Source of the DNA: an uncultured virus (IMG/VR IMGVR_UViG_3300029305_007860)
Taxonomy: Duplodnaviria > Heunggongvirae > Uroviricota > Caudoviricetes
Virus record (IMG/VR): IMGVR_UViG_3300029305_007860
DNA length: 55,307 nt
Strand: one strand, 5' to 3'
In this document: one piece after another, positions 7,259-54,833 of the stretch
How positions within the stretch are numbered: the first letter of the stretch is position 1
How the letters are laid out: the number at the start of each line of letters is the position of its first letter
Made by a program: the position numbers and the translations under genes
The notes under the pieces: generated by a model
What the model saw: the letters and a program-made list of their open reading frames with translations, nothing else
Told to the model about the DNA's origin: nothing
Databases searched by the model: none

Positions 7259-7308
7259 TCGTTTTACTACTATGTAATTTTTATTAACCATCGGGAAAGG
7301 TAACCCGA
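7259..7308 (+). promoter_or_regulatory. CGTTTTACTA element plus leader hairpin
   Basis: TCGTTTTACTACTATGTA (7259-76); AACCA; TCGGG-AAAGGTAA-CCCGA. Confidence 0.8.
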
Positions 7309-7327
7309 CATTTTTTAAAAGGAGGAT

Positions 7328-7714
7328 ATGCTTATGCTTATTTCTAATCAGCCTCAGTTAAATAATATTGAGGTTATGCAACCTGCTCACATATCTACAT
7401 TTTCTGATTTTTTTAACTTACTTTCTTCAAAAACAGCAGAAGACATCATAAGTGAGTTAAATATTAATGAACACATCTGGGATGTAGAATGTATCGGCGA
7501 TATTGTTTACGAAGACGAAGACCTTTATGAGTTTCTGGACTCTCTCGGAGCTGAAATCGTGGATTATTTGGGAACTCATGTTGTTATTAGTTCTGATAAT
7601 GGATTTATTTATAAAATCCCTTGTGAAGACAGAACTAACAGACATGGAGATGACCTTCCTGATGAAACGGTCCTTTTCTTCGACTTTAATAACATTATCA
7701 GTTCAGTCGCTTAA
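7328..7714 (+). CDS. Hypothetical acidic protein
   Basis: ORF after GGAGG RBS (start may be 7334). Confidence 0.7.
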   Translation: MLMLISNQPQLNNIEVMQPAHISTFSDFFNLLSSKTAEDIISELNINEHIWDVECIGDIVYEDEDLYEFLDSLGAEIVDYLGTHVVISSDNGFIYKIPCEDRTNRHGDDLPDETVLFFDFNNIISSVA

Positions 7715-7747
7715 CTAATATTATTTTACAATTAAGGAGGATTTACT

Positions 7748-8638
7748 ATGGCTAAAATAGTTTATGTTGATTGGAGAGACAGACAATTCGAACCTGAAAT
7801 CATTGGTGTTTACGAAGATGAGAGTATGGGAATTAAAGCAAGAGAAAATAAAGAATATGAACTTACTCAGGAAGGTTATGTTGCCGGAGACGACTTCCAT
7901 GTTTGGGTTAAAGATGTAGAAATATTTAAAAACCCTAAAGAAAAAGAAACTATTAACTCTTTTTTAAGAAATATAATGGAATTTAAAGACAGAGCGACCG
8001 GCAGAAAATTTCTATATTTTTTAGATAAAGACACTAATATTTATTATGTTTTTGAAAATAATAACTTATTCTTCAAGGGCGAAACCGAAAACATTTTTAA
8101 CAAAATCGAAGAATTACGAGGTCCTTTAGAATACATAGCTTTTCCAGACACTCAAGCAAATCTGTATAACCCTTGTCCTGTTGATATGAATGGGCATTAT
8201 CGGATTTCCAACTCTTCACAAATAAATGGTATCTATTATAGAACCGATTTATTTATTGATAACTCAAGAGTTTGGACAAGAAAAAAATCTAGTGATGCAT
8301 TTTATTCAAAAGATGTTTTACAGCTTGACATTTCAGAATATATAGAAAGAATTATTAATGCATGTAAGTCTGCCGAACCTTTAAAGCGTATGTGTTTTGA
8401 TAACTTCGGTCCTTATATCCTTTATATTCATAAGAGGATTTCTTTGTATCCTTTCATTAACGGCGAAGATTACAATTTTGTTGATGTTTTTATTTACAAA
8501 AAAAATGCTGTCAAACGTGAAGGTAAATTTAAGGATGTTTGCGTTGATTTTGTCAAAGATGTTCCTATTTCTAATCTTAAAGAAATCTTAAATGATATTA
8601 TTCTTCTCCAAAAAGATATTGATATTACTTCTGACTAA
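7748..8638 (+). CDS. Hypothetical protein
   Basis: RBS AAGGAGG; 296 aa. Confidence 0.75.
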   Translation: MAKIVYVDWRDRQFEPEIIGVYEDESMGIKARENKEYELTQEGYVAGDDFHVWVKDVEIFKNPKEKETINSFLRNIMEFKDRATGRKFLYFLDKDTNIYYVFENNNLFFKGETENIFNKIEELRGPLEYIAFPDTQANLYNPCPVDMNGHYRISNSSQINGIYYRTDLFIDNSRVWTRKKSSDAFYSKDVLQLDISEYIERIINACKSAEPLKRMCFDNFGPYILYIHKRISLYPFINGEDYNFVDVFIYKKNAVKREGKFKDVCVDFVKDVPISNLKEILNDIILLQKDIDITSD

Positions 8639-8726
8639 TATTATTTATATTTTTTCTCTTAATATTAAAGCCAAGATTTATCATTCTTGGCTTTTAATAT
8701 TTTTAATTATATAATTTCTATTTTAC

Positions 8727-8755
8727 TTGATTTAATGTTCATTGAACACTATAAT
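8727..8755 (+). promoter_or_regulatory. sigmaA promoter with palindromic operator (copy 2 of 4)
   Basis: TTGATT-17-TATAAT with TGTTCATTGAACA; ~100 bp through the RBS nearly identical to 5490-5590. Confidence 0.8.
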
Positions 8756-8826
8756 ATAATTATAAGATATTTACAGCTTGTTATTAATTCTTTTTGAAAA
8801 CAACGATTTTAAGGAGGAAACATCAA

Positions 8827-9294
8827 ATGATTATAATAAGCAAAAAGGAATGGAATGATATCTATAAGGATTACAAAGGAATATGGCAAGATTATCACAA
8901 CAATCATCCTGAATGGATTGGAAAGAAAACGGTTATGAGTACATGTATTACACATAATCCTAATGAATTGTGTAAACTTTTGATTGAAGATGTAGATTTT
9001 GTTATTGAAGAATATTCCGAGAAAACAGACAAAGAATTAGAAAAACTTTGGGAAGAATTTGAGGATGTTACTTGCATAGAAGCAAAAGATTTCTATAAGG
9101 ATGATGAAGATTATAAGGATGATATTTCACTAGTTATCATGTCTGGGTGGCAAGATTTTGAAGCAGGAACAGCTATAGAAACAATTTGGCACTGGTTTAA
9201 CCAATATCACAGCAAGGGAGTTAGTTGGCTTATAAATGGGTGCGAATCTGCTGTACCCGATACAAAAGTAGAAGAATTTTTAAAAAACATCTAA
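8827..9294 (+). CDS. Hypothetical protein
   Basis: RBS AAGGAGG before ATG 8827 (ORF track start 8794). Confidence 0.7.
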   Translation: MIIISKKEWNDIYKDYKGIWQDYHNNHPEWIGKKTVMSTCITHNPNELCKLLIEDVDFVIEEYSEKTDKELEKLWEEFEDVTCIEAKDFYKDDEDYKDDISLVIMSGWQDFEAGTAIETIWHWFNQYHSKGVSWLINGCESAVPDTKVEEFLKNI

Positions 9295-18985: not shown

Positions 18986-19038
18986 TCGTTTTACTATTAC
19001 GTAATATTTAACTAACCAACAGGGAAAAGGTAATCCCT
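18986..19038 (+). promoter_or_regulatory. CGTTTTACTA element plus leader hairpin
   Basis: TCGTTTTACTATTACGTA; AACCA; AGGGA-AAAGGTAA-TCCCT. Confidence 0.8.
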
Positions 19039-20063: not shown

Positions 20064-20118
20064 TCGTTTTACTAATATGTAATACATTAATTAACCATAC
20101 TGGGGAACAAGGAACCCC
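20064..20118 (+). promoter_or_regulatory. CGTTTTACTA element plus leader hairpin (variant loop)
   Basis: TCGTTTTACTAATATGTA; AACCA; GGGG-AACAAGGAA-CCCC. Confidence 0.75.
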
Positions 20119-21151: not shown

Positions 21152-21208
21152 TCGTTTTACTATTATGTATTTTATTATTTCACAACTCAAGGGAAAGGTA
21201 ACCCTTGA
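21152..21208 (+). promoter_or_regulatory. CGTTTTACTA element plus leader hairpin
   Basis: TCGTTTTACTATTATGTA; TCAAGGG-AAAGGTAA-CCCTTGA. Confidence 0.8.
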
Positions 21209-21969: not shown

Positions 21970-22019
21970 TCGTTTTACTATTATGTATTAATTTATTAAC
22001 CATATGGGAAAAGGTACCC
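21970..22019 (+). promoter_or_regulatory. CGTTTTACTA element plus leader hairpin
   Basis: TCGTTTTACTATTATGTA; AACCA; GGG-AAAAGGTA-CCC. Confidence 0.75.
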
Positions 22020-23208: not shown

Positions 23209-23255
23209 TCGTTTTACTATTATAACAAGTTAAGGATGTGAAAATCCACGACTTT
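23209..23255 (+). mobile_element. CGTTTTACTA element interrupted at TTAT by an IS200/IS605 left-end remnant
   Basis: TCGTTTTACTATTAT then AACAAGTTAAGGATGTGAAAATCCACGACTTT. Confidence 0.6.
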
Positions 23256-38014: not shown

Positions 38015-38371
38015 ATGAAAAAAATAATTTATCAACTTAATAATACATTAAATAGTGTTTTTATAGAAGTTACTCCTAATGGTGATGATGCCGGGAATAT
38101 TGGTTCCAATGGAACAGGATGGGACGAGTTTTCTATTATGTTTAATGATATATTACAAAAATATCATAATATTATTGCAGGAGTTTTTGGGATTCTTACT
38201 TTAACATTAGTTTTAGTGGTTATGTATTTTTTTACAGTTTTAGGTGCTTCTGGAGATAAACCACTAGAAAGAACAAGAGCTATAAGTAGAATAATTGTTT
38301 GTTTTGTAGTTATTGCGTTGTTCGGAAGTATTAGTTTATTTTTTGCATTGTTTTGGGGATTATTTAAGTAA
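38015..38371 (+). CDS. Pilin-like (VirB2/TrbC-like) membrane protein
   Basis: Two TM helices around GDKPLERTRA; paralog of the preceding gene. Confidence 0.6.
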   Translation: MKKIIYQLNNTLNSVFIEVTPNGDDAGNIGSNGTGWDEFSIMFNDILQKYHNIIAGVFGILTLTLVLVVMYFFTVLGASGDKPLERTRAISRIIVCFVVIALFGSISLFFALFWGLFK

Positions 38372-38386
38372 GAGGGAGAATAAATC

Positions 38387-38707
38387 ATGAATGATTCTTA
38401 TACTATGCCTCCTGATACTAATGAAAAAGAGAAAATCATTGGAGGTATCTTTACAATAACACAGTTTGGTTGGATAGTAGGGGGTATTGTTATCTTTGCA
38501 ATACTTGTATTATCTCTGTTTCGTTTTATAGGTTTTTTTTCAATAATATTAGGACTTTTTTTTGTTGTTGTCGGATTTATTTTAGCAACAAAAAAGATTA
38601 ATGAAATACCTCTTCCTAAATATTTAAGGTTAAGACGTAAATACAAGAATAAAACAAAAAAATATATTAATAAAGGTGTTCATTCAAGCCTTGAATTTTC
38701 TGAATAA
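38387..38707 (+). CDS. PrgI family (VirB3-like) protein
   Basis: PPDTNEKEKIIGGIFTITQ followed by two TM helices; upstream of VirB4. Confidence 0.8.
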   Translation: MNDSYTMPPDTNEKEKIIGGIFTITQFGWIVGGIVIFAILVLSLFRFIGFFSIILGLFFVVVGFILATKKINEIPLPKYLRLRRKYKNKTKKYINKGVHSSLEFSE

Positions 38708-38723
38708 GATGGAGGAAGCGAAT

Positions 38724-39853
38724 ATGGGAATAAGGATATTAGTCTGTTTTGTTGCAATTATAGTTATTTGTGTGGTTGTTTTACTTATTTTGTTAGTGGT
38801 TAACCCAGATATATTTTCTAAAAATAAAAAAATAGATGGAGAAATAATATCATCTGAAGATAAGGAATCTAAAATTATTCAGGATGATTTTCAGAAGAGT
38901 GATACTAAGGATTTTTTGATATTTAAGGAATTAGATGATTATTCTATGGACTTAGGAAATCATAATTATAGAGGAATAGTTGAAGTTTCTTCTGTTAATT
39001 ATCTTCTATGAGCGATACAGAAAGGAAAATGGTTGATTTAGGATTTCAAAAATTTCTTAATTCTTTAAATTTCCCAATAGAAGTGTTTATACAAACGAGA
39101 GAATTTGACGGAGAAATAGTTGTAGAAAATTTACATAATAATATTAATAATACTTCCAAAAGATTCCCGAGCATTATGTCATATGCAAATGAATATGAGA
39201 AGGCAATGTCTTCGATTACAGAATATATTAACAATTCAAAAATAAAGAAAAAATATATAATAGTTTCTTATAATAATACAGACTTTTCCGATGTATCAGC
39301 ATTAACTAATTATGAAATTAAGCAATTTGCATTAGATGAATTACTTACAAGGTGTAATATTGTCGCATCTGGGCTTACTGGAGTGGGGCTTGATGTAAAA
39401 TTGCTTCGTAAGCCAGAAATTGCAGAGTGCTTATTTTCTTTTTATCATAGAAGCTATTACAGGCTTGCAAAAGATATAGCTGTAGGGTGGTATGATTCTC
39501 TTGTTGTAGATAGAGATAGTCAACTTAGAGTTTCTAATAGGGAAACGTTAGACACGATATTATTAACAGCTCAAAATCAAATAAAATCTCTTATTACAGC
39601 AGATTGTGATAATAAGGTTCTTGAATTTTACAGATATATATGGCAGGTTCTTGAATATTTTAAACAGGATGATAGGAGTTCTTATATTAGAGATTTATTA
39701 GAAAGTAGTATGGAAAAAGCTTATGAAAATGGATATGAACAAGAATATTATTCTTATATAAATAACAATCAAGAAAAGTTAAAATATACCAATTTTGATA
39801 ACCCTGATGATAGAGATGACATATCTGTACGATATGAGAATTATAATAGGTAA
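38724..39853 (+). pseudogene. T4SS accessory protein split by an apparent 1-nt frameshift (38724..39011 and 39008..39853)
   Basis: EVSSVNYLL joined to MSDTERKMV..FLNSLNFPIEVFIQTR reads as one continuous motif; could instead be two coupled genes. Confidence 0.55.
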
Positions 39854-39865
39854 GGAGATAGAGTT

Positions 39866-41764
39866 ATGAATTTTAATAAAAACTCAACAGTATTAAGTAA
39901 TGATGAAAACCAAAAATCTGTGTTTATTAATGGCTCAAGAACTTTAAAGCAACAGATAGCTCCAGCATCTATTATTTTTACATCAGAAGAAGAACTTAAG
40001 GTAGAAAATTATTATGTTAGAAGTTTTGTAATAAATGGATACCCTGCAAGAGTAGGTTTTGGTTGGATGAATCCATTATATTCTTATGATGGAGATATGG
40101 ATGTAGCTATACATATAGAACCTACACCTGAAAGATATGCATTAGAAGAGCTTATTAATAAAATTGCTCAATATGAAACCCAATATATGATTGAAGTAGA
40201 AAAAGGTTCTATTAAAAACGTAACTAAACTACAAAATAAAATAGCGGTTTTAACAGAGCAAAGGACAAAGTTAGAGCAAAATAACGAGTCTATGTTTCAC
40301 GTATCAACATTTGCATCTATGTATAATTCTGATTTAAAAGAATTAAACAAGGATTCTCAAAGATTGCAATCTCATTTATGTGGGACTAAGATGAATATTA
40401 TGCCATTATTTCTTCGACAAGATGAAGGATATTTATCTTGTTCGCCGTATGGAGTATGCAAAATTCAGGATTATTCTAGAAGTATTAACACAGGTGCTTT
40501 GAGTACCATGTTTCCATTCTATAATCCTGAAATAAATGATGTTCATGGAACATTTATAGGCGTTAATGCATTCAGTTTTACGCCAATATTTATTGATTTG
40601 TTTAATAAAAAGAAATTAGGCAATGCGAATTTATTGATTTCTGGAGGTTCAGGAGCAGGTAAAACATATTTAACAATGTTAATAATATGTAGGTCTACTC
40701 TGGAAGGAGTTAGGCATTGTATTATTGACCCGGAAAACGAATATGAACCATGTACCTTGTCAATGGGAGGAATATCATTAAAAATAGCTCCTAATTCAGA
40801 TTACATGTTAAATCCTTTTGATATTGATAAAGAGGTTGAGTTAGATAAACATGGAAATCCAACAGGAAGAGAATTTGTTAATATTAAAGGGAAATGTTCG
40901 GAATTGCTTGATTTATTAGGAATTATGTTTCCGGTGATGATGAATCCTGTAACAATGGCAGACATTTCCGGTGTATTAATGAATTTATATAGTTCTTTTG
41001 GCTTTACTGAAGATATTAATAGTCTTTATGTAGAAGGTAATAGTTTTAATCCGGAAACTGGAGAATACTTTAAAGAGAAAAATTTTAAAGTGATGCCAAC
41101 AATGAGTGACTTTAGAAATTTGTTACTTTCTACAGCTATGGAAACCAATTCTCAGACATTACTCGATTTTGCAAATTCTTTAAAGCTTTATTGTAAGGGA
41201 GGGATTTATGATTTATTTGATTGTTATACAAATGTAAATTCTTCAGGATTTGACAGTTTTCCTATCGTTAGGTTTGATACAAGTGGTATTGAAGATAAAA
41301 CTTTACGTCCTATTGGAATGCATGTGGTTTTATCGTGGGTATGGAATAAATTTATAAAAAAAGATATAAAAACTAGAAAACGTATTGTAGCAGATGAAGC
41401 GTGGATGTTATTAAATAGAGCAATGGCAGGGTCGGAATACACAGCTCATTTCTTGGAAAATTGTTCAAGAAGAGTTAGAAAGTATAATGGTTCATTGTGT
41501 TGTGCATCACAAAATTTTAGAGAGTTTGTAAGTAGAGATGAAGGACAAGCTATTCTTTCTAATTCAGCAGTTAAAATTTATCTAAAGATGGAAGCAGAAG
41601 ATATTGAAGCGGTTGGAGATAGATTTATTATGAGTGATGGAGAGAAATCGTTTTTATTATCAGCGACAAGAGGAGATATTTTAATCAAGGTTGCTAAAGA
41701 AAGTATTACAGCAAAAGTATATGCGTTTCCTTTTGAACATGAATTAATAGCTAAGGAAGAATAG
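39866..41764 (+). CDS. virB4: VirB4-like conjugation ATPase
   Basis: Walker A GGSGAGKT; IIDPENEY; Walker B ADEAW; RKYN; SQ. Confidence 0.9.
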   Translation: MNFNKNSTVLSNDENQKSVFINGSRTLKQQIAPASIIFTSEEELKVENYYVRSFVINGYPARVGFGWMNPLYSYDGDMDVAIHIEPTPERYALEELINKIAQYETQYMIEVEKGSIKNVTKLQNKIAVLTEQRTKLEQNNESMFHVSTFASMYNSDLKELNKDSQRLQSHLCGTKMNIMPLFLRQDEGYLSCSPYGVCKIQDYSRSINTGALSTMFPFYNPEINDVHGTFIGVNAFSFTPIFIDLFNKKKLGNANLLISGGSGAGKTYLTMLIICRSTLEGVRHCIIDPENEYEPCTLSMGGISLKIAPNSDYMLNPFDIDKEVELDKHGNPTGREFVNIKGKCSELLDLLGIMFPVMMNPVTMADISGVLMNLYSSFGFTEDINSLYVEGNSFNPETGEYFKEKNFKVMPTMSDFRNLLLSTAMETNSQTLLDFANSLKLYCKGGIYDLFDCYTNVNSSGFDSFPIVRFDTSGIEDKTLRPIGMHVVLSWVWNKFIKKDIKTRKRIVADEAWMLLNRAMAGSEYTAHFLENCSRRVRKYNGSLCCASQNFREFVSRDEGQAILSNSAVKIYLKMEAEDIEAVGDRFIMSDGEKSFLLSATRGDILIKVAKESITAKVYAFPFEHELIAKEE

Positions 41765-41796
41765 ATAAAAGACTTTTTTATTTAAGGAGGGATATA

Positions 41797-44298
41797 ATGG
41801 ATACAATAATGTTCATAAAGAAAAAAATAATTTTCTTTTTTATAATTCTTATAATGAGTGTCGTTTTTTTCTCCAATGTTAAAGATGTTTATGCTCGAGA
41901 AAATGCCTATCTTTCGTGTCTTATAGATGATGAGTCATATATGTATAAAACTCAAATAATTTGGTCGGGAGAAGAGATAGAACAGGGTAGAATAGGTAAT
42001 TTTAATGGTATGGAATTATCTGTTAATAATCCGGATGAATTTTTAGAAGTATATAACTATTATTGCTATTTTGAATCAGAAGATTCATTTGCAAATAGTA
42101 ATATTAATAATATTGTCGGCACAATAGATACTGATACAGGGAAAATATCTATAGAAGTAGATATGGGAGAAGGATTCGTTGATGGTCAAACAATTTCGTC
42201 TGAAACATGGGCGTCGCTTACAACTTTAAATGCTAATGATTATACAAATCCTACGAATATTCTTACTTTTCCAGCCAGTAATTCTAGTTCAGCTAGAGAA
42301 AGTGACATAAACAGAGCGTATTCTATTTCTTCTACTTTAGGAGATGATTTTAGAAATGCATTGTTGTTTGTTAATGATGGTAAGTCTTTTACTTCTGTTG
42401 ATGCCTTAGTAGATACTGCCTATGCTCTTGTTTCAACTAATCAAGGAACTATTACAAATCAATTTGGAAGTCAGTATAGAATTATATATCAAACAGTACC
42501 AAGTGATGAATTTGGTTATTGTTATGAGTGTAAAATTACTAAAATTGGTTCTGTTTCTTCGACTGTAGATAGGTCGAAAAGTTTTATATATATGATAAAA
42601 AAAGGATATCAGGATTGTAGCACAGAAGATATATTTGAAGATGGAACAGCTAATAATCTTAATTTTAATAGCTCGGACAGTTCTTTAGATACTGTTTATA
42701 TAACATGGCAACAGCTCTTTGTTGAAGCTGGAATACTTTATGGACAAGGAATATCTTATGCAAATCAAGCAGATTTATATAGTATTGATTCTTTTGAAAA
42801 TTCATTAGTTAAAGTGTTTCGTAATTTTATAAGTGGAATAAAAAATAAACTACAATTATATTCAATAGAAGATTGTATATTTAATAATAGTATTCGTGGG
42901 TCCCAAGCATTTACGTATGGCGTTTACAAAACTGATTATTCATCTGGAATATTTAGATTTTTTATGATTATGTTGGCTCTTGTTGTTAGTATGGTTGTTT
43001 TAGCAATTATTAGAGTACTTATAAAAAAAGAGTGGTCCACAGCTTCGCCGGTAGCTAGATATTCAATACTTGAAGGGATTAAAGATATTGTAATAGTTTT
43101 ATTTTTCCTTTCATCCTTATGGTTATTAATGAAGTTGGTTCTTGTTATAAATTTCTCGTTTGTTGATATTTGGGATGCTTATATTGACGGCAAGCATATG
43201 ACAGATAGTGCTGGATATAGTAGTTTATCCGCTTTACTTTATTCTTTCATATTTTTTGTTATACAGACTTATATTAACATTATTTACATATTAAGAGGAT
43301 TAATTGTTCCTGTTCTAATGTTTCTTTCTCCTGTTTTTGTTTTTTTGTTTTGTTGGGGAGAATCAGGTAAAAGACTCACAGGAGCATGGCTTAAAGAATT
43401 TATAGGTAATGTAATAATTCAATCTTTTCATGCACTGATATATGGTTTTATATTAGGTAATTCTACGGGGCTTAGAGGTATTGAAGCTTTGGTTGTTTGT
43501 GCTTCTATAATCCCACTTACTTCTGTAATAAAAGATATTTCTGGCGTAGGAGGAGGGCAATTACTTCAAAAAGCATCAAATCTTTCTTCTAATACAGTAT
43601 CTGCTATTGGCATGGGGACATCTGCTGTTGCTAATACTGTGGGAGGAGCTGTGTCGGGAGTAGGAAGTATTGCATCAAATACTGGTCATGTTGTTGGGAA
43701 AGTTGCAGGTAATTTAGCTCAAGCAGGAGGAGATGTGATTAGAGCTGGTGGTGGAATTATGAATACTGGATTTGGTGTAGGAAATATGATTGTTCATGAT
43801 AGAGGACAAATGAATATTGCATCTGGGATGTCTCAAATGTCGTATGGAATTTCAGGAGCAATAAAGAGTGGTTCTAAGGCAGTTAGTGATATTTCTTCGT
43901 CAGGAGGAAGGATGATTTCTAATTCGGTCCGAAGTAATAGTGTAAATGCTAGACTTGGAGAAAGTAATCTTGGAACACCTAACTATATTAACAAAAATAA
44001 AGATGGAACAATGACTGCTCATTATAATGCTGTAAATAAAACGGATTTGTCAAGAATAGAAGCTCTGCATGGTAAAGAATCTCAAGAATATAGGCAAGCT
44101 AATGAAATATATGCATTAAGTAGTTTAGCTGACAAACTTACTCCTAGTGAAACCAATTCGATAGCGGAGAAGTCTGGAGCGTTCATGTCTTCGTCAGACA
44201 AAGGATTAGATATTACTTTTAATAAACCGAGAAAAGGAAATAATTATGTTCCTCTTAGTCAGTCGTTAGGAGAAAAAATATATCCTCCTAAAATGTAA
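41797..44298 (+). CDS. Polytopic T4SS membrane protein (VirB6-like)
   Basis: Signal peptide, large extracellular domain, multiple TM helices, Gly/Ser-rich tail; follows virB4. Confidence 0.65.
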   Translation: MDTIMFIKKKIIFFFIILIMSVVFFSNVKDVYARENAYLSCLIDDESYMYKTQIIWSGEEIEQGRIGNFNGMELSVNNPDEFLEVYNYYCYFESEDSFANSNINNIVGTIDTDTGKISIEVDMGEGFVDGQTISSETWASLTTLNANDYTNPTNILTFPASNSSSARESDINRAYSISSTLGDDFRNALLFVNDGKSFTSVDALVDTAYALVSTNQGTITNQFGSQYRIIYQTVPSDEFGYCYECKITKIGSVSSTVDRSKSFIYMIKKGYQDCSTEDIFEDGTANNLNFNSSDSSLDTVYITWQQLFVEAGILYGQGISYANQADLYSIDSFENSLVKVFRNFISGIKNKLQLYSIEDCIFNNSIRGSQAFTYGVYKTDYSSGIFRFFMIMLALVVSMVVLAIIRVLIKKEWSTASPVARYSILEGIKDIVIVLFFLSSLWLLMKLVLVINFSFVDIWDAYIDGKHMTDSAGYSSLSALLYSFIFFVIQTYINIIYILRGLIVPVLMFLSPVFVFLFCWGESGKRLTGAWLKEFIGNVIIQSFHALIYGFILGNSTGLRGIEALVVCASIIPLTSVIKDISGVGGGQLLQKASNLSSNTVSAIGMGTSAVANTVGGAVSGVGSIASNTGHVVGKVAGNLAQAGGDVIRAGGGIMNTGFGVGNMIVHDRGQMNIASGMSQMSYGISGAIKSGSKAVSDISSSGGRMISNSVRSNSVNARLGESNLGTPNYINKNKDGTMTAHYNAVNKTDLSRIEALHGKESQEYRQANEIYALSSLADKLTPSETNSIAEKSGAFMSSSDKGLDITFNKPRKGNNYVPLSQSLGEKIYPPKM

Positions 44299-44339
44299 TA
44301 ACATTATTTTAAATTAATTAAATATTTTACAGAATTAAG

Positions 44340-47165
44340 GTGATTTTTGTGTCTTATAATAAATTTGATAATGGTTTTGAAAAAGGAAGTAAGGCTCTCT
44401 TAAATGGAGGGAAAAAAGCTGGAAGGAAATTAGGAAATGCTATTGGCAGGACGTTAGGATTAGGAATAAGGCGTGGAGGCAGAAAATTGTTAAAATCCAC
44501 AGTAAAATCAGTTGGAAAAATGCTTTCTTTACTTCCTAAACAGGTAGTAGTGATTTTGGCTATTTTTATATTTGTACTTATAAGTTTTACATCATGTGGA
44601 TACTTTGCCACATTGGAAAATGTTGGTGAAACAGGTAATAGAATTGATAATAGTAATTCTGGCAGTTATTCGGTTAGCGAGAATTCGGTAGTGTACTCAA
44701 ATGCTAATGCTAATTGTATAGCGTATTATAAGCTTTTATCAAAAGAAAAATCTGTTTGGCAGGAGAGTATAGATGAAAATGGAAATAAGATTCTTATTAG
44801 AGCCGATGATAAAAATGCTGTATCGGATTACTTTAAAAATGATTTAAACTATTATGTTGATGCGGATTTGCTTTTTTGTATGAATAAATACATATTTGGA
44901 GAAGAATTTGTATATCCTGAAGCTTTTTTACAACCTGTTAATTATAATAAAGAAACGTTTGAACTAATTCCTTTGACTACTGAGGATGGAAATGTTTCTT
45001 CGGTATCAAAAAAATATAATAAAGATGGAACTGTATTAGAAAGTGAATCACAATATACAACATCTGATTATGGAATAGCTACTGTAATGTCGTATACAAA
45101 ACAAACAGAAAAAACATCATTTAAGGGTACATATTACAAAAAAGAGGTATTAAATAATGATGGAACTATAAGTGAAATAGATATAGATGAAGAGTTTGAC
45201 ATCACAATAAAAACGAAAGAGTATGATATTCTTGATAAAGTTGTGACTTTTGCAGGTAATATTCAATACAATTACATTCCATCATCTACCCTTACAGCAA
45301 CTGTAAAAACTGGAGAATCCTCTGGAGTAGAAACAGACCTTACGGAAATTTATGTTTATGCAAATACGTCTATTTCGTTTGTTACATATAAAAGAGTATT
45401 AAAAGATAAAGATGGGAACGAAGTTACAGGAATATCATTAGGAAGTGAATATCCATATAATAAAAGATTTATGAAATATAATAGTAGCGTAGATGCTGGT
45501 TATACAGACGATTATATATCTGAGTGGATATCTCTTCATACAAAAGAAATAGAGTATACGGATTCATCGGGAAGTACAATTAGTCTAAATGTAAGCTATG
45601 AATATTCGACGGAATCTATCAAACAATGTTCTTTAAAGAAATATAGAACAAGTGATAGTGGAATCTATATAGATTTTGTTAATCAAAGTGAAACAATATG
45701 TAATGATTTAGGCAATGGTTATTTATATGATTATTTAAAGCATTTTTCCTGTTATTTTCCGGCAAATTTATCGAGAAGTTATAACACTTTTTTACAAATG
45801 GGTTCTCAAGCGACAGATATTGATTCTATTATAATTACTAATTATGAGGTAATTAGTGGATTGGGAACTAATTCTTTTGAGCAAATTTATAATGGCAGTG
45901 AAGAAGGGAAAGAGTTATTAGAACTTATATGGGATATTCTTATAACATGGGGGTATTCTGAAGTTCAAGCATCTGCGGTAATAGGAAATATGGGACAAGA
46001 GAGTGGATATAATCCTTCGGTTGTTAATAATATTGGAGCGGTCGGTTTATGTCAATGGCTTAATGATAGAAAAACTAATTTGTTTAATTTTGCAGGAAGC
46101 ATTCAAAGAGAGTGGACAGATGCAGAGATACAAGTTATATATGCGTGTATGGAATTATCTGTAGATAAATTATATGACCAATGTTCTTATCAATGGGGAG
46201 GATATGAAGAAGAAGCAGAAATCTTTGCTAATAGTACTGATTTAGCAGAGGTTACTAAAGCAATATGTAGAGGTTGGGAAAGATGCGGTAATGACGAAGC
46301 AAATTATACACATAGAATCGCGTGTGCTAATTCTGCGTATGCGACGTTTTCGGGCAGAGTTCCTGAAACGCAGGCTTTAATAATAGCACCATCTGGCTCT
46401 ACAGATGGAAATATAATAAAAACATATGATACTTCTTATGTTACAAGGTCTATGTCAGATAAAGACAAAGAATTATTTAACGTATTCTATCATTCTGTTG
46501 ATGATATATACAATGGGAACTATATTCTTGAGTTTAAAACTAAGTGTATGGCTGAGTCTGAAATAGATAATATGTTATTGCTCGCTAATTCTTATATTAA
46601 TGGGACAAGTTTAGATGAAGAAAGAATAAATTCCGTGAATGAATTATGGTCTACAGATTATATTTCAAATTTGACTTCTAAAAAAACAACTGTAGCGGAT
46701 GTTTATGGGGTGGATTCTTTAGGAGAACCTAGACTTTCAGTTGAAAATATAGAAGGAATGCCTTATTGGTTTAGTGGTAGTCCTTTTTATAATAGTGGAT
46801 ATGGTCTTCCGAATTGCACTACATGGGTGTATGGAAGATGTTGGGAGGCAACAGGAGAACAGCCACCAAGTATATTTTTGGGAGATGCTAAAACATGGTG
46901 GACTGAAAATATAAATACTAATACGTATTTATATGGAAGTGAGCCGAAAGCAGGAGCTATTATGGTATGGGGAGGAAACGGAGCTGGTCATGTAGCTTTT
47001 GTTGAACAAGTGAATACTGATGGAACGATGACTATAACTCAATCAGGATGGAAAACAATGGCATGGTATCCGTATAATGTAAAAACTGGTACTGTTGAAA
47101 GTATAGAGAATTACAGTTCTTCAAGACCTTTTTTGGGTTATATATATATGGAAAAAATAAACTGA
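44340..47165 (+). CDS. Conjugation peptidoglycan hydrolase (phage-tail-lysozyme plus CHAP)
   Basis: VIGNMGQES, GLCQW; NCTTWVYGR, GDAKTW, GHVAFVE. Confidence 0.85.
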   Translation: MIFVSYNKFDNGFEKGSKALLNGGKKAGRKLGNAIGRTLGLGIRRGGRKLLKSTVKSVGKMLSLLPKQVVVILAIFIFVLISFTSCGYFATLENVGETGNRIDNSNSGSYSVSENSVVYSNANANCIAYYKLLSKEKSVWQESIDENGNKILIRADDKNAVSDYFKNDLNYYVDADLLFCMNKYIFGEEFVYPEAFLQPVNYNKETFELIPLTTEDGNVSSVSKKYNKDGTVLESESQYTTSDYGIATVMSYTKQTEKTSFKGTYYKKEVLNNDGTISEIDIDEEFDITIKTKEYDILDKVVTFAGNIQYNYIPSSTLTATVKTGESSGVETDLTEIYVYANTSISFVTYKRVLKDKDGNEVTGISLGSEYPYNKRFMKYNSSVDAGYTDDYISEWISLHTKEIEYTDSSGSTISLNVSYEYSTESIKQCSLKKYRTSDSGIYIDFVNQSETICNDLGNGYLYDYLKHFSCYFPANLSRSYNTFLQMGSQATDIDSIIITNYEVISGLGTNSFEQIYNGSEEGKELLELIWDILITWGYSEVQASAVIGNMGQESGYNPSVVNNIGAVGLCQWLNDRKTNLFNFAGSIQREWTDAEIQVIYACMELSVDKLYDQCSYQWGGYEEEAEIFANSTDLAEVTKAICRGWERCGNDEANYTHRIACANSAYATFSGRVPETQALIIAPSGSTDGNIIKTYDTSYVTRSMSDKDKELFNVFYHSVDDIYNGNYILEFKTKCMAESEIDNMLLLANSYINGTSLDEERINSVNELWSTDYISNLTSKKTTVADVYGVDSLGEPRLSVENIEGMPYWFSGSPFYNSGYGLPNCTTWVYGRCWEATGEQPPSIFLGDAKTWWTENINTNTYLYGSEPKAGAIMVWGGNGAGHVAFVEQVNTDGTMTITQSGWKTMAWYPYNVKTGTVESIENYSSSRPFLGYIYMEKIN

Positions 47166-47205
47166 TTTATAAATTATATATAGATGGAAAGGAGTCTTTA
47201 ATATT

Positions 47206-48105
47206 ATGTATTGTAAATTTAGGATAAAATATATTTTTTTGTGTCTAATAATGATTTTTTCTGTAATTTTATCTACGGAAATTAGTTATGCAGAAGAGAC
47301 TCCTTCTGAATATACTGTTGTTTTAAATCCTGTAAGTGGAGATGGAAGTTACTATACTGTTGAATATACAGGGAATCCAGAAGTACAAAGTAATGGAAAT
47401 ATTTTTGTATATACATGGGGAGAAGAAGCTACAATAACGATTACAGTAAAAGAAGGATGTCTTATACAATCTTCAGATGTTGATTTTATGGAAGGATTAG
47501 TTGAAGATGATTGGGATTGTGAATTTGGAGTGACTTGGGATTCTGCGACCATAGATAGAGTTGGGAATAAAGGACATCCATCTGGAATAACTGGAACTTT
47601 TTCTGACGGATGGACGAAATACACAATTTATATATCTTCAGATGCTTTTAATAAAAGTGACGGTAATTCAGCTGGATATAATGAATATTGTGCGGATATT
47701 ACTACTTTAAAGTTTGATTTTGCTATTGAAGGAACTCCTATAGAAAATTCTGACAGTCCTTCAATTTCAGGAGGAGATGAGGTTCCTTCTGAACATATAT
47801 CTGGTCATAATACAGTAGCTCAGAATATCCCTGATAATTCGGAAATTACAAGATGGCAGAAAGTTATAGAAAAAATAAAGGAATTTGAAAAAATAATTGA
47901 AATAATTACTAATTTCATGTATGGATTTGGAATATTAACAGCTGTTCTTAGTATAATGGTTACATTGTTTGAATATTCAATAGCTTCTACTCATCCTCTT
48001 AGAAGAAGGGAAAGCTTAGAAAATTTAGCAAGCGGAGCAATTTGTATCGCTTTATTCGGTTCGATTAAACTTTTTGTTACGCTCATTATTCAAATAGCAA
48101 TGTAG
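47206..48105 (+). CDS. Secreted-domain protein with pilin-like C-terminus
   Basis: Signal peptide; C-terminal TM pair around STHPLRRRES and IALFGS as in 38015..38371. Confidence 0.65.
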   Translation: MYCKFRIKYIFLCLIMIFSVILSTEISYAEETPSEYTVVLNPVSGDGSYYTVEYTGNPEVQSNGNIFVYTWGEEATITITVKEGCLIQSSDVDFMEGLVEDDWDCEFGVTWDSATIDRVGNKGHPSGITGTFSDGWTKYTIYISSDAFNKSDGNSAGYNEYCADITTLKFDFAIEGTPIENSDSPSISGGDEVPSEHISGHNTVAQNIPDNSEITRWQKVIEKIKEFEKIIEIITNFMYGFGILTAVLSIMVTLFEYSIASTHPLRRRESLENLASGAICIALFGSIKLFVTLIIQIAM

Positions 48106-48119
48106 AGGAGTGAGAAAAT

Positions 48120-49622
48120 ATGAAAAAAATATTATTAATTATTAATATATTCTTAATTGCAAGTATATATATTACGGGGTGTTCCGATGTTAAGGATACT
48201 CCTTCAAAACAAGAAGTTATAACAATAGAGACAAGTGAATATGGTGATAGTGATTTTGTTCAAGAAGGTTATACAAATATTAGTTCTATAGATGGATATT
48301 CTTTTTGTGTTAGAAATGAGGATTATAATACTGATGTTACATTTAATACATTAGATATATTAAATGACAGTAAGGAACTTCCTTATATGGGGTTCCCTGA
48401 GTATTCTTTTGATAAAGTTTCTTTTGAAAATAATGAATTAATAAAAAATGATAATGTTTTTTTATTACATACTTATAATAAATCCTTGTATTTTTTTCAG
48501 GCAAATACAGCTTTTGGCTATTCTATGCATTATTTTAGTGATGATGATATAGCTAGAAATACTATTATTTCTATATTATCACGTATTAATATTAATTCTC
48601 CTACATTTATTGAAAATTCCTCCTTGTATTCATATGATTATCAATCAGGGGAATATGGATATAATATTAAGATTTCTTTTAATATTGATGATAATCTTGA
48701 ATGGCAAGGAGATGTATATATGTGGGAAAATGATAAGGGACAGAATTTTTTTCTTGTTTCAGGAACAGAGAATTTTTCTGAAGAGGAAAGAAAATATATT
48801 GCGGATTCTGTTTGCGTCTCAGAAGAATTTAATTCCGCATTATTTGAATATAGTACCAGCTCTATTTCTTTAGATTATGGTGGAATTGTTTTAAATGGTG
48901 AGTTTAATGATGCATTAGGTTTTAATTGTGATATATCGGAAAAATTTAGATATTCTTCTATTGCAAGTTGGAAAAGTGATGAAGCACCGTTTTTTGCCAA
49001 TCCATATTATGGGTATATAGCAAGATATAATGTTTATAATCTTCCGGCAGAAGTTTCGATAGATGATTTTATACATTGTTATATGTTTCCTAATTATAAA
49101 TTTTTTTATGGAGAATCCAGTTATATTGATGATTCTAAGTTTCTTCCCATTGAATATTTAGATACTTATTCAATAACAGATAAAGATAATATAACATGGG
49201 ATGTATATACTACAAAATGCTCAAAAGAACATATTCTTATTTGGGATAAATATGAGTACACATCGTTATATATAAGAATTAAAGGGACACAATGTATTGC
49301 AATAGAAACGTGGTATAACGGAGAATATAAGGAATGCTTTGATAATTTAATGAAAGAGGCAATACAGTCAAGTTATGTTACAGAAGGACAGTCTGCAATT
49401 CTCTTTCCTTTATCAGAAATGATTAAGGCTTATGAAAATTATTATATTATTCCTGAAGAGCAACCGTCTATTCAAGAACAGGATTTGACAGAAGATATAG
49501 CTACTGATACAGACGCTACAGAAGATATTGTTGACCTAGATTTTTCCACTTCTGAATCTGAAAATATTCAAGATATAAATTCTGACAGTATATCGGGAGA
49601 GGAGGAAAACGTTGATGAATAA
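48120..49622 (+). CDS. Lipoprotein
   Basis: Lipobox ITGC; acidic tail. Confidence 0.75.
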   Translation: MKKILLIINIFLIASIYITGCSDVKDTPSKQEVITIETSEYGDSDFVQEGYTNISSIDGYSFCVRNEDYNTDVTFNTLDILNDSKELPYMGFPEYSFDKVSFENNELIKNDNVFLLHTYNKSLYFFQANTAFGYSMHYFSDDDIARNTIISILSRININSPTFIENSSLYSYDYQSGEYGYNIKISFNIDDNLEWQGDVYMWENDKGQNFFLVSGTENFSEEERKYIADSVCVSEEFNSALFEYSTSSISLDYGGIVLNGEFNDALGFNCDISEKFRYSSIASWKSDEAPFFANPYYGYIARYNVYNLPAEVSIDDFIHCYMFPNYKFFYGESSYIDDSKFLPIEYLDTYSITDKDNITWDVYTTKCSKEHILIWDKYEYTSLYIRIKGTQCIAIETWYNGEYKECFDNLMKEAIQSSYVTEGQSAILFPLSEMIKAYENYYIIPEEQPSIQEQDLTEDIATDTDATEDIVDLDFSTSESENIQDINSDSISGEEENVDE

Positions 49623-50571
49623 TAAAGTAAAATATATAAAACCATTATTACGAGTTTTTATTGTAATAGGAATAATATTATTTGTTTGTGTAGTTGTGTT
49701 ATTTGTTTATCTAAAAAGAGGACAAAAAGAAGAAAATGTTAATTATAATATAGAATCTACTTTTTTTGATAGTTTTATAGATAATATGTCATCTATGTAT
49801 GCATATGAGTTTTATTTTACTATTGAAGGAGAAGATGCAAAACTTATTTTACCAGAGTGGTTATATGTACTTGCTGAACCGCGTCTTACTATGGATTTAA
49901 ATGATAATGAAAAAAAATTATATTTTTATGGGACGATTTATAGTGGTGGAATTGATATGACAATTTCTCATGCTAATCCAGAAGGATATTATTCGGAAGA
50001 ATTTGAAGTAGAAAGAAGCGATAAATATGTTAAAGTTTTAGAGTCAATACATATTAAAGGAAATAATAATGCTATTTATATTACTAATTGTTCATATTTG
50101 AGTAATAGTTTTATTCAGGGTTTTTTTAGATGTGAAGAATATGAGTCCATCTCGGACGATACATATGTAAAATTATATCAAAATAAATCGGGAAGAGATA
50201 TTACAGCTGATATTGTAAAGTTATTGAGTGAAATGAAGAATAGTTCGTTTATTAAATGTGGAGTAACTAAAGAAAATTATGATGCATTTACATGTCAAGA
50301 AGAATTTACATATGCCTATGATACTGATTTTTCTTTAACATTTCCTGAAGGATTTACTGCTTATAATAATATTTATATATCTGGAGATGTAAAGGAAATA
50401 AGTTTTTTGGGGTCTTGTGATACTTTAAAAATTGAAGGGTTTATATCTGAAAAGAAAGATTATATTATTCCCTATACAGAGTATGATTATTGGAAAGTTA
50501 TAGATATTAATGAACTGGTAGATATGATTTTAAATTATTGGGAAGAACATGAGTTATTAGAGGAGGGGTAA
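49612..50571 (+). CDS. Membrane-anchored hypothetical protein
   Basis: N-terminal TM helix; RBS GAGGAGG. Confidence 0.75.
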   Translation: MMNNKVKYIKPLLRVFIVIGIILFVCVVVLFVYLKRGQKEENVNYNIESTFFDSFIDNMSSMYAYEFYFTIEGEDAKLILPEWLYVLAEPRLTMDLNDNEKKLYFYGTIYSGGIDMTISHANPEGYYSEEFEVERSDKYVKVLESIHIKGNNNAIYITNCSYLSNSFIQGFFRCEEYESISDDTYVKLYQNKSGRDITADIVKLLSEMKNSSFIKCGVTKENYDAFTCQEEFTYAYDTDFSLTFPEGFTAYNNIYISGDVKEISFLGSCDTLKIEGFISEKKDYIIPYTEYDYWKVIDINELVDMILNYWEEHELLEEG

Positions 50572-50573
50572 AA

Positions 50574-50879
50574 ATGTTATATATATTTATAATATTCTTT
50601 TTTATCATATATATTATTGGTGAATTAACAAAATATAGAAGAATTGAATCGTTTAAAGAAAAAAAGAAGGTATATAATGAGCCAGTAGTTTATATTAAAT
50701 TTGTATCTATATGTATTGTTATAATATTAATTCTAATTAATCGTATTCTTCCTTCAAGTGTTATAGAAAGAAGTAATGGAGTAATTAATAGTATTATTTA
50801 TTTTGTTATTTTATCTATTATGGGATATATTTCTTTTTTGGATATAAGAAAAATATCTAAGAATGATAAATCTCAATGA
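50574..50879 (+). CDS. Small membrane protein
   Basis: Three hydrophobic segments; RBS GGAGGGG. Confidence 0.65.
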   Translation: MLYIFIIFFFIIYIIGELTKYRRIESFKEKKKVYNEPVVYIKFVSICIVIILILINRILPSSVIERSNGVINSIIYFVILSIMGYISFLDIRKISKNDKSQ

Positions 50880-50887
50880 TTTGAATG

Positions 50888-50905
50888 TCGTTTTACTACT
50901 ATGTA
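50888..50905 (+). promoter_or_regulatory. CGTTTTACTA element (no hairpin)
   Basis: TCGTTTTACTACTATGTA, followed within a few bases by RBS GAGGAGG. Confidence 0.8.
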
Positions 50906-50925
50906 GGTAGAGGAGGAGGCTACTT

Positions 50926-52665: not shown

Positions 52666-53028
52666 ATGAATATAAAAATTCCTGTAATAAGAGTACAAAA
52701 TGGGTTATCGAAAACTATACATATAGTAGGCACAGATATTCATGATGAGTTATATATACAAAATAATTGTATTCATTACGAGAATACTAATAATTTTACG
52801 GGCTCTGAAATTGGCTCTTATCAGTATATCGGAGAAAAAAATGATTTAACTGGTCAAGTAAATGTAGAATTTGTGAGTATAGAAGAGTTTATAGAAATGA
52901 TTACAGCTAATTATGAGTTTGACAAAGAAACTTTAAATAGATTAAATGATTTTAAAATTTCTTCTTTAAAGCAAGAAGAGGATATAAAAAAAGCACAGGA
53001 GGATGCCGTTCTTCTTGCTGTATTATAA
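52666..53028 (+). CDS. Hypothetical protein
   Basis: Promoter TTGACG (52598)-17-TATAAT (52621); RBS GAGGTG. Confidence 0.7.
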   Translation: MNIKIPVIRVQNGLSKTIHIVGTDIHDELYIQNNCIHYENTNNFTGSEIGSYQYIGEKNDLTGQVNVEFVSIEEFIEMITANYEFDKETLNRLNDFKISSLKQEEDIKKAQEDAVLLAVL

Positions 53029-53039
53029 GGAGGTAAAAT

Positions 53040-53480
53040 ATGAATAAGGTAATTTTAATGGGACGTTTAACTCGTGACCCGGAAGTTAGATATTCGCAAG
53101 GAGGAGAACCTTTGGCTATAGCTAGATATACATTGGCTGTGGACAGACGTGGTAGAAGAGATTCTAGTAGTAATGACCAGACAGCAGATTTTATTCCATG
53201 TGTTGCTTTTGGACGTGCTGGTGAGTTTGCTGAGAAATATTTAAGACAGGGTACAAAGATGGTTATAACTGGTAGAATTCAGACTGGAAGTTACACTAAT
53301 AAAGATGGTAATAGAGTATATACTACAGAGGTTATCGTTGAGGACCAAGAGTTTGCTGAAAGTAAAGCTTCTGCTTCTAATTCAGGTTATAATAATTCCT
53401 ATATTCCAGAACCAAATGCAAGTACAGATGGTTTTATGAGTATTCCAGAGGGAATCGAGAACGATTTACCATTTCAATAA
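53040..53480 (+). CDS. ssb: Single-stranded DNA-binding protein
   Basis: MNKVILMGRLTRDPE, GRIQTGSY, C-terminal DLPF. Confidence 0.95.
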   Translation: MNKVILMGRLTRDPEVRYSQGGEPLAIARYTLAVDRRGRRDSSSNDQTADFIPCVAFGRAGEFAEKYLRQGTKMVITGRIQTGSYTNKDGNRVYTTEVIVEDQEFAESKASASNSGYNNSYIPEPNASTDGFMSIPEGIENDLPFQ

Positions 53481-53644
53481 AACATACTATTAAAAGAGTA
53501 GAAATTAATACATCTACTCTTTTAATAATTTGTTTTGTGAATATTCTAGAAAAGTATTCTTTTTGGACTGATGGTTGTAAATTATTGACAAATAGATAAT
53601 AAAAACATATAATAATATTATTATATGGCTTAGGTGGTGAGAAT

Positions 53645-54502
53645 ATGGCTTATCCTAAATTAAGTTTTGATGAGTACATTAACCTGTTAAAAGAGTATAA
53701 AAACAAATATGGTAATTTAGAAATACCTTCATCATATACTACTGATTCCGGAATTAATTTAGGATACTGGGTTAATTATATTAGAAGGCATGAGAATCAA
53801 TGCCCTTTAGATAGAAGAATAATGCTTGATGAAGTAGGTTTTGTATGGATTCCTAAACATACATGGATGTATTTATATAGTATTGCTAAACAATATTACG
53901 ATGAATATGGGACAATTAATGGAGTTCCAAATAATTTTGTATATAAAGGAGTATGGTTAGGGGCGTGGCTATGTAAAAATCGAAGTTTATATAATAAGAA
54001 TAAATTGTCAAAGTTTAAGACAAAAAAATTGGATGAACTGAATTTTTCTTGGAAGTCTAAATATGAGGAAGTATATAACACTTATTTACTATTATTAGAA
54101 AGTTATTATAAAAAGTATGGACATTTACTTCCTTCTGTAAATGAAAAATACGAAGATTTAAATATTGATAAAAAAAAATACCCCATTGGAAATTATGTAG
54201 CGAGATTACGGCAAGGATATAAGAACGGTAAATTAAGTGAAAAAAAAATAATAGAACTTGAAAATATTGGTATGAAGTGGAATGGTAGAAAAGGATTTTG
54301 GGAATATCACTATAATTTATGTATAGAGTATATAAACGCAGGAAATAAACTTGTCTCTCAAACTGTATATAAGGGAAGACAAATAGGGGCATGGTATAAT
54401 AGGCAAAAAATATTAAAACATAACAAAAGTCTTGATGATGAACAATTAAGTCTTTTGATTGAATTGGATAATAGAATAAAAAAGGGTGATAATGATGAAT
54501 AA
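53645..54502 (+). CDS. Helicase-associated (HA) domain repeat protein
   Basis: Four LGxWxxxxR...LxxxGFxW-type repeats; promoter TTGACA (53585)-17-TATAAT. Confidence 0.8.
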   Translation: MAYPKLSFDEYINLLKEYKNKYGNLEIPSSYTTDSGINLGYWVNYIRRHENQCPLDRRIMLDEVGFVWIPKHTWMYLYSIAKQYYDEYGTINGVPNNFVYKGVWLGAWLCKNRSLYNKNKLSKFKTKKLDELNFSWKSKYEEVYNTYLLLLESYYKKYGHLLPSVNEKYEDLNIDKKKYPIGNYVARLRQGYKNGKLSEKKIIELENIGMKWNGRKGFWEYHYNLCIEYINAGNKLVSQTVYKGRQIGAWYNRQKILKHNKSLDDEQLSLLIELDNRIKKGDNDE

Positions 54503-54731
54503 TAGTGAAATAAATCGAATATCTAATATAGCTAATGTATTTATTGATAAAAATAAGTCATCTCAGAAAGTTGTGTTTAATAATAATGTTTTCCCAGAAA
54601 CACAAGGAGATATTTTAGAAAAGATTGAAAAAGCTAAGAAACATCAATATGAAAAAGGACTTTTATCTAATGAATTTATAGTAGAAACACAAGAAGGAAA
54701 ATTCTATAGTTCGATAAAAGGATATGTCTAA
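54486..54731 (+). CDS. Hypothetical protein
   Basis: Overlaps the stop of the upstream gene. Confidence 0.55.
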   Translation: MIMMNNSEINRISNIANVFIDKNKSSQKVVFNNNVFPETQGDILEKIEKAKKHQYEKGLLSNEFIVETQEGKFYSSIKGYV

Positions 54732-54779
54732 TTAACAAATACTAAAAAATATTAAAAAAAAGAGCTTAGGCTCTTTTTT

Positions 54780-54833
54780 TCGTTTTACTATTGTGTAACT
54801 TATTCAATAACCATAGAGGTAAGGTAGCCTCTA
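54780..54833 (+). promoter_or_regulatory. CGTTTTACTA element plus leader hairpin
   Basis: TCGTTTTACTATTGTGTA; AACCA; TAGAGG-TAAGGTAG-CCTCTA. Confidence 0.8.

Follow-up and report, generated by a model that had tools for sequence, protein, structure and literature searches.

The 55,307-nucleotide (nt) stretch analysed here, called the window, comes from IMG/VR record IMGVR_UViG_3300029305_007860 (filed as an uncultured virus) and is about half of a 117,307-bp contig. Its genes include a Rep3 replication initiator with iterons, a RepA_N initiator, an operon for a type IV secretion system (T4SS), two genes for single-stranded-DNA-binding proteins (ssb), Gad1 and an IS605 TnpB; its DNA occurs in animal faeces metagenomes, and the element is probably a conjugative plasmid (given Rep3 with iterons and RepA_N) of a Lachnospiraceae-like gut bacterium. 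The subject of this analysis is an 18-bp block that recurs in front of genes in the window, its putative reader (a sigma-like protein whose gene ends at the base before one of the copies) and a leader hairpin that follows most copies:

7259..7276, + strand: 18-bp block heading 7328–8638 (proteins without known function)
7291..7308, + strand: leader hairpin, loop AAAGGTAA
18986..19003, + strand: 18-bp block following a terminator and heading 19064–20024
19021..19038, + strand: leader hairpin
20064..20081, + strand: 18-bp block after a terminator; the ribosome-binding site (RBS) opens only a 13-codon frame, followed by a PAPS-reductase-like gene at 20330–21064
20102..20118, + strand: leader hairpin, variant loop AACAAGGAA
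21152..21169, + strand: 18-bp block heading 21231–21893
21187..21208, + strand: leader hairpin with a 7-bp stem
21970..21987, + strand: 18-bp block after a terminator, heading 22116–23153; RBS lost at the usual place
22006..22019, + strand: leader hairpin with a weak 3-bp stem
23209..23223, + strand: block cut by an insertion sequence (IS), ending after TTAT; IS200/605-type left-end remnant from 23224
27972..27989, + strand: 18-bp block with 2 mismatches, 3′ of the Rep3 gene, heading 28080–28661
28006..28027, + strand: leader hairpin with another stem sequence and the same loop core
28746..28764, + strand: doubtful decayed block, with neither hairpin nor nearby RBS
34799..36271, + strand: protein with receiver and AAA_31 (MinD/ParA-like) domains, directly 5′ of the sigma gene in all three gut elements compared below
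36286..37401, + strand: predicted divergent sigma-70-family factor (region 1.2-like helix, insert of ~95 amino acids [aa], sigma2, and sigma4 with a relaxed recognition helix)
37402..37419, + strand: 18-bp block from the first base past the sigma stop, heading the transfer operon, without the family hairpin
37456..50879, + strand: T4SS operon (two pilin-like genes, PrgI, VirB4-type ATPase, large membrane protein, lysozyme/CHAP hydrolase, more membrane proteins)
50888..50905, + strand: 18-bp block with an RBS 4 nt downstream, heading an XRE gene (50926–51177) and 51152–52575, without the family hairpin
54780..54797, + strand: 18-bp block after a terminator, heading the second ssb (from 54858)
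54814..54833, + strand: leader hairpin with a 7-bp stem

The window form of the block is TCGTTWTACTANTATGTA. Searching both strands of the window with TCGTTTTACTANTATGTA at up to 3 mismatches gave 12 matches against 0.70 expected (largest shuffle, 3). Ten of these, all on the + strand, are copies that an earlier reading made from the letters alone (the sequence-only reading) had listed, and its nine intact copies lie exactly where it had placed them, intergenic and on the coding strand; the other two matches, at 45128 (−) and 51830 (+), are 3-mismatch background. With a matrix made from the nine intact copies, these score 24.8 to 29.1, the copy at 23209 scores 13.7 and the next site 10.8, and an unseeded count of words in 34 upstream regions ranks TCGTTTTACT first (7 sense, 0 antisense). 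The IS-interrupted copy at 23209, likewise intergenic and on the coding strand, was rightly described as such: it is cut right after TTAT by an IS200/605-type left end. Left ends of this type stand at 4844, 5161, 23224 and 24930 in window positions 1–26700, each after TTAT, with a TnpB gene only at 24930. The supposed decayed copy at 28746 does exist as a site, but it is weak, with two extra T and an altered 3′ end, stands before an ordinary sigmaA-like promoter and is at best a relic.

Two further observations of the sequence-only reading bear on promoter architecture and stood up. At 5 of the 11 sites (18986, 20064, 21970, 23209 and 54780) a terminator-like hairpin with a T run ends no more than about 10 nt away, which places the −35 position of those sites within variable terminator sequence; and no conserved −35 box was found in four registers, the best match to TTGACA being 1–3 of 6 bases, with the exception of 21152 (5 of 6). 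Ordinary sigmaA-like promoters of the same DNA show both boxes. A second block at a fixed distance was also sought without result, including the two-part TTTACG/GATA arrangement of promoters read by SigN (a plasmid sigma factor taken up below), so that what remains is a single block without −35, as in T4-type late promoters. An RBS, which the sequence-only reading had placed downstream of every copy, follows most of them; it is lost from its usual place at 21970 and missing near 28746, and at 20064 it opens only the short frame listed above. It begins 4 nt after the block at 50888 and some 10–15 nt after it at three sites of a related element (G001, below); being so close, it means that the block cannot be a −35 box and must lie near the transcription start. 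This spacing also led us to reject a −35 role by analogy with SigN promoters; the G001 block does resemble the SigN −35, yet with the RBS so near the resemblance is not functional. The TAACCA downstream of the block was rejected as a −10, since its spacing varies from 9 to 11 nt, two copies lack it and transcription would then begin within the hairpin.

Two gut relatives with a readable sigma gene and flank were reached by way of VirB4: G001, a Lachnospiraceae metagenome-assembled genome (VirB4 58% and sigma 28% identical to the window), and L035, a 121-kb metagenome contig (59% and 32%). The order receiver-ATPase, sigma, block, pilin, T4SS is kept in all three elements, each with its own variant of a WCGTT block; the window form is found in neither relative. 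Repeat searches gave WCGTTWAATTAWWTA for G001, overlapping the sigma stop, and TCGTTATATWWAWTAT for L035, starting 13 nt past it. The sequence-only reading had proposed co-occurrence of motif and sigma homologues across related elements as a check, and had noted that its copy at 37402 begins at the base after the sigma stop (the distance is 0 nt) and heads the T4SS operon; both hold, and the two relatives extend the pattern. G001 has fourteen copies on three contigs, which appear to be one element because T4SS genes run across the contig ends, and a weaker fifteenth; among the genes headed by its copies are ssb, nrdD, UvrD, a primase-like gene and an operon with S1-domain and Replic_Relax genes. 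Five copies lie in 22 kb of L035. Orientation is strict: every one of the 9, 14 and 5 copies lies on the coding strand. The copy counts for G001 and L035 are partly circular, since the patterns were derived from the same sequences, but the position behind sigma is free of that circularity, as is the finding that the top match of the G001 matrix in L035 is the site behind the L035 sigma gene.

The blocks are largely restricted to the elements. Single matches (0–1 mismatch), most inside long reading frames, occur in 24 of 401 Lachnospiraceae genomes and no genome has two, while in G001 the element contigs, 79 kb of a 3.9-Mb genome, hold 13 of the 14 exact matches to its own block, the remaining one lying within an opposite-strand gene; the sequence-only reading had named equal abundance on chromosomes as a finding that would speak against it. 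A search of viral contigs gave no exact match to the window block, and at up to 2 mismatches none was found in G001, a second genome (G002) or three megaplasmids.

The sigma-like protein carries sigma2 and sigma4 in one 371-aa frame. Its AlphaFold model (from 29 sequences) has a mean pLDDT of 80, Foldseek and VIA rank sigma factors at the top, and Atlas agrees. The sigma2 domain superimposes at an rmsd of 1.9–3.0 (1.9 over 78 residues on the SigE N-terminal domain), with core-binding region 2.2 (EDIREAIYLGITKA) and aromatic region 2.3 (FSSWAY) aligned; residues 280–360 align with sigma4 domains at Z 7–8.5 and have their helix-turn-helix fold; and helix 36–51 of the model, which only the closest clade shows, aligns with region 1.2. 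The sigmas of the window, G001 and L035 share the distal part of the insert, which those of the megaplasmids described below lack; folded alone, the N-terminal insert reaches a pLDDT of 52 and matches no named Atlas family. The models thus place the protein in the sigma-70 fold, with a predicted role in core-polymerase binding and initiation. SigK and SigE models gave no match for it. As a query, the protein found no plasmid, viral, genome or metagenome locus directly; a sigma profile run against the 401 genomes of the family of G001 matched in G001 only; and pBS32, the plasmid of SigN, was not among the plasmid matches when either gut sigma was used in tblastn.

How the parts of the protein are conserved is of interest for the single block. 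Pairwise identity across the recognition helix of region 4.2 amounts to 26.0% and 24.6% in the two gut clades (clade average, 41%) and 77.5% in the sigmaK/E-like megaplasmid clade (average, 52%), while identity in regions 2.3–2.4 is 55–73% in all three; regions 2.2 and 2.3–2.4 are the best-kept measured parts in both gut clades. (The sigma tree is a neighbour-joining tree without support values, and no order of events is drawn from it.) A single-block promoter predicts a relaxed −35-reading helix, and the relaxed helix thus fits a promoter that consists of a −10 only. That it is relaxed in exactly those lineages whose block lacks a −35 is a correlation, and it is the strongest link between protein and DNA.

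We therefore read the block, at a probability of about 0.7, as a promoter for the plasmid's own sigma factor; so had the sequence-only reading, and the two relatives, the restriction to the elements and the relaxed 4.2 helix now support it. The 18 bp would form the whole promoter, an extended −10 with discriminator and no −35. A host sigmaA promoter would transcribe the receiver-ATPase and sigma genes, and the sigma factor would initiate transcription at or just past the 3′ terminus of each block, so that the T4SS and XRE operons, the second ssb and the accessory cassettes would come on together. Most transcripts other than that of the T4SS would begin with a short AU-rich stretch, AACCA and the hairpin. 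In the frame we favour, T-C-G-T-[TTTACT]-A-N-TATGTA, a G would stand at −14 (as in extended −10 promoters of sigmaA) and a T at −11 (where sigmaA needs A), with the start at the final GTA; a frame five bases on (TATTAT) is also possible. The sequence-only reading had put the start at 50888 near the same terminal GTA, from the closeness of the RBS. Regions 1.2 to 3, perhaps with the insert, would read all 18 bp. In the window no block stands 5′ of the sigma operon, and hence there is no sign of a direct positive loop.

More distant relatives widen the setting. VirB4 is 44–48% identical to that of 11 plasmid records of 127–722 kb from Bacillales and Clostridia, and a homologous sigma gene lies within about 6 kb upstream of the pilin/PrgI/VirB4 block at eight loci (L001, L002, L004, L006, L007, L010, L011 and L040), that is, in 5 of 8 annotated regions examined and three more loci with wider flanks, often with clpX. 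On three megaplasmids (L004, L006 and L007) clpX is directly 3′ of the sigma gene, a possible means of turnover control. The megaplasmid sigmas, in the same gene position, score best to models of the sporulation sigma factors SigK and SigE (E 1e-34 to 1e-42), all of them below cut-off (108–145 bits against 252–349); the window protein is far more divergent from that family, having the N-terminal insert and the relaxed 4.2 helix. A Subdoligranulum "plasmid" match was set aside, as it resembles part of a chromosome and its sigmaK-like gene is an ordinary one. PLSDB types at least 9 members of the plasmid family as "non-mobilizable" although a VirB4/T4SS, a sigmaK/E-like sigma and an S1-domain protein are present.

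Several findings weigh against a sigma factor of the plasmid as the reader of the block. The protein scores below curated cut-offs (Pfam Sigma70_r2, 22.9 against 24; TIGR02937, 30.2 against 42.9), and its five closest homologues come without placement on DNA. The link between sigma and block spans three elements, and as these share ancestry, any other element-encoded regulator would co-vary with the block too. Several related T4SS loci have no sigma gene within the examined flank. For the megaplasmids, whose 4.2 helix is conserved, a dispersed two-part promoter is predicted and was not borne out: only a short TGYATATW precedes the pilin gene, at 7 of 15 loci, and strand bias on three plasmids is weak (6:1, 17:12 and 19:9). 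Finally, the block resembles the extended −10 region of sigmaA promoters, and one chromosomal match (L067) has, in the same frame, a good −35 (TTGACG) 17 bp upstream.

These last points would suit a weak extended −10 promoter of host sigmaA that needs some other activator of the element, along the lines of AcaCD/SetCD, the sigma gene being a neighbour with another job. The G in TCGT[TTTACT] aligns with that of an extended −10, the copy at 27972 reads TATACT, and the element does encode XRE proteins and the receiver-ATPase. Such an arrangement is nonetheless unlikely, given that the A at −11 is missing from eight of nine copies, that no upstream activator box is conserved in any of the three elements and that true sigmaA promoters on the element look canonical. 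Still less can be said for the block as an operator bound by a repressor of the element, for instance that of the XRE gene at 50926, comparable to the Reg576 establishment regulon of p576. One copy stands directly before that gene and the block contains TAC-N6-GTA, but there is no sigmaA promoter to repress at the block sites, the core is asymmetric and its copies strictly oriented, and in G001 and L035 the XRE orthologues are not preceded by a block; a palindrome family within sigmaA promoters at 5501, 8727, 9435 and 15418 suits this role better. We consider an operator very improbable.

Block and hairpin might also act on read-through RNA, as an antitermination or processing site rather than a promoter. 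Nut sites consist of a short box plus a hairpin with a conserved purine loop, and the conserved box and purine-loop hairpin of the window recall them; copies also adjoin terminators, though they lie downstream of these. The absence of the hairpin from the head of the longest operon in all three elements argues against processive antitermination, and no Rfam family matches, all of which makes an RNA-level site quite improbable. The conAn systems of Gram-positive conjugative elements offer a precedent, yet conAn2 is ~260–600 bp long, single and placed behind conAn1 (PMC8191782), whereas the head of the window operon is a 54-bp gap without a hairpin. As for single-stranded-DNA promoters or recombination sites heading mobile gene cassettes, the tandem units of terminator, block, hairpin and gene at 18986–23608 and an ssb among the targets would fit. 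We give this explanation very little weight: the block does not form a stem, the donor-side T4SS is among the targets headed by copies, stems that differ between copies would be poor recombination substrates, and the array has no integrase next to it. Our preferred reading thus remains a promoter for the plasmid's own sigma factor.

The sequence-only reading was incomplete in one respect, as it did not mention the leader that follows 7 of the 9 intact blocks: 9–11 AT-rich bases, AACCA (a variant at 21152), a hairpin, an A-rich spacer and the RBS. The loop is AAAGGTAA or a close variant, with the core AAGG(U/A)A, and all seven hairpins in the window with an AAGG(T/A)A loop follow a block (for the AAGGTA form, shuffles average 0.07). 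Stems differ in sequence yet pair: when arms are swapped between copies, the 36 of 42 paired cells of the window fall to a mean of 24.3 (maximum, 29; 1854 swaps), and in G001 the 53 of 54 fall to 26.1 (maximum, 37), although the native counts are inflated, hairpin borders having been picked for maximal pairing, which tells against the strength of this result. Hairpins follow 9 of 14 blocks in G001 (loop core AGAG or AGAC) and 4 of 5 in L035 (RRGGA loop); the block at the pilin/T4SS head has none in any of the three elements, nor has the XRE copy at 50888. Rfam covariance models returned two chance-level matches far below the gathering score. The stem is kept as structure and the loop as sequence. 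With its loop conserved and its stem variable, the hairpin most probably serves as the target of an RNA-binding protein, and would provide a control of translation or stability that the transfer operon lacks. At 50903–50927 of the window, the last bases of the 50888 block pair with a stretch that runs into the XRE start codon, leaving the RBS in the loop; transcripts begun at the block and those reading through from upstream could differ in how they are translated.

Target hairpins of CsrA/Rsm proteins carry GGA in the loop, and the leader hairpins share with them a short stem and a purine loop just 5′ of the RBS, the accessory copies of L035 having RRGGA in 4 of 4. GGA occurs, however, in 1 of 7 loops in the window and 0 of 9 in G001, against 4 of 4 in L035; 6 of 7 window loops have GGU, and those of G001 AGAG. 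No CsrA-family gene was found in the open reading frames (ORFs) scanned. One protein that could read the hairpin is rS1-like and carries repeated S1 domains. Its gene in G001 (L122:147-938, contig C41) stands under a block and hairpin directly upstream of the Replic_Relax gene, the protein has a 53% homologue on a 121-kb contig (the size of L035), and homologues occur in 9 PLSDB records, every one of which belongs to the 11 with a close VirB4; it is a core gene of the plasmid family. The 117,307-bp contig of the window was absent from the 120 of 215 matches listed for it. Neither a two-part promoter nor a leader-hairpin family was found in the Geobacillus plasmid (whole), pSC2 (whole) or the Clostridioides difficile BI1 plasmid (280 of 301 kb), and since the first two encode an S1 protein, this weakens the case for S1 as the reader. 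It is a rather doubtful idea that the elements possess a private system of two layers, in which a sporulation-derived sigma that no longer reads a −35 and initiates at an element-specific block is joined by an element-encoded RNA-binding protein acting on a drifting leader loop. If it were true, translation of DNA-processing and accessory genes would be licensed or timed apart from the T4SS, and drift of block and loop would insulate co-resident plasmids from each other.

Element-encoded sigma regulons are already known, and the statement of the sequence-only reading that this is not a described system was too strong in that respect. Sig7-8 of Tn916 is an element-encoded sigma that activates conjugation genes of a Gram-positive mobile element, as proposed here (bioRxiv 10.64898/2026.10.01.756105); it is a split, two-gene sigma with one main autoactivated promoter upstream of its own genes, whereas the window has one full-length sigma, at least nine dispersed putative promoters and a block after the sigma gene. 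SigN (ZpdN) of Bacillus subtilis pBS32 has a dispersed, plasmid-restricted regulon that includes DNA-metabolism genes (PMC6751061), and the blocks of G001 head such genes as well (ssb, nrdD, primase-like, UvrD). SigN promoters, as given in Table 2 of that paper, are two-part (TTTACG ... GATA), LexA-controlled and autoactivated, and the window block is one-part; the word "conjugation" is absent from its main text (PMC6751061).

The likeness to phage late promoters proposed by the sequence-only reading extends to the single block, the missing −35 and a divergent element sigma (gp55/gp33 of T4; PMC2988020). It ends at the 8-bp TATA box of T4 and at gp55, which lacks domain 4 and needs gp33 and a sliding clamp (PMC2988020); the window has an 18-bp block and a sigma that keeps the region-4 fold, and co-factors of the gp33 or sliding-clamp type were not found among 55 window ORFs scanned. 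Reg576/EGeRS2 and EGeRS1 of the pLS20 family likewise place repeated sequences before scattered, variable accessory operons, but are repressed sigmaA promoters or regions of 400–600 bp and do not head the transfer operon (PMC6294495; PMC8708921). The system of the window would work like SigN, Tn916 Sig7-8 and T4 late promoters, then, without sharing all the defining features of any of them, and literature searches, whose coverage excluded most subscription journals and supplements, gave no description of the sigma, block or hairpin of this plasmid family. The findings suggest that a little-studied family of large Firmicute plasmids controls its transfer through a positive master switch, with the leader hairpin suggesting a second, post-transcriptional layer. 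As matched pairs of sigma and promoter with different sequences, the three gut elements form a series in which change of sigma specificity and loss of the −35 can be followed, and they may supply orthogonal expression parts for gut Clostridia.

Other features of the window deserve mention. The second repeat family, at 5501, 8727, 9435 and 15418, consists of sigmaA-like promoters with the spacer palindrome TGTTC-ATT-GAACA; it heads cargo genes, including a methylase and, further down, Gad1, and looks like a repressor-controlled establishment regulon. G001 has a sigmaA family of its own, beginning TTGCGT. The Gad1 (Gabija anti-defence) homologue lies at 17079–17999 on this conjugative element (E 4e-69). 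Two replication initiators stand about 1 kb apart, Rep3 at 27188–27943 (iterons upstream) and RepA_N at 29113–30171, and the ssb paralogues (53040–53480 and 54858–55307) are 1.8 kb apart, the first after a sigmaA-like promoter (52598) and the second after a block. The protein encoded at 23931–24650 belongs to no Pfam family and has homologues downstream of the T4SS in two Bacillales elements (L010 and L011). A long non-coding stretch holds, at 3369–3655, arrayed inverted repeats (TATACTAA/TTAGTATA) that may serve as a partition site or an origin.

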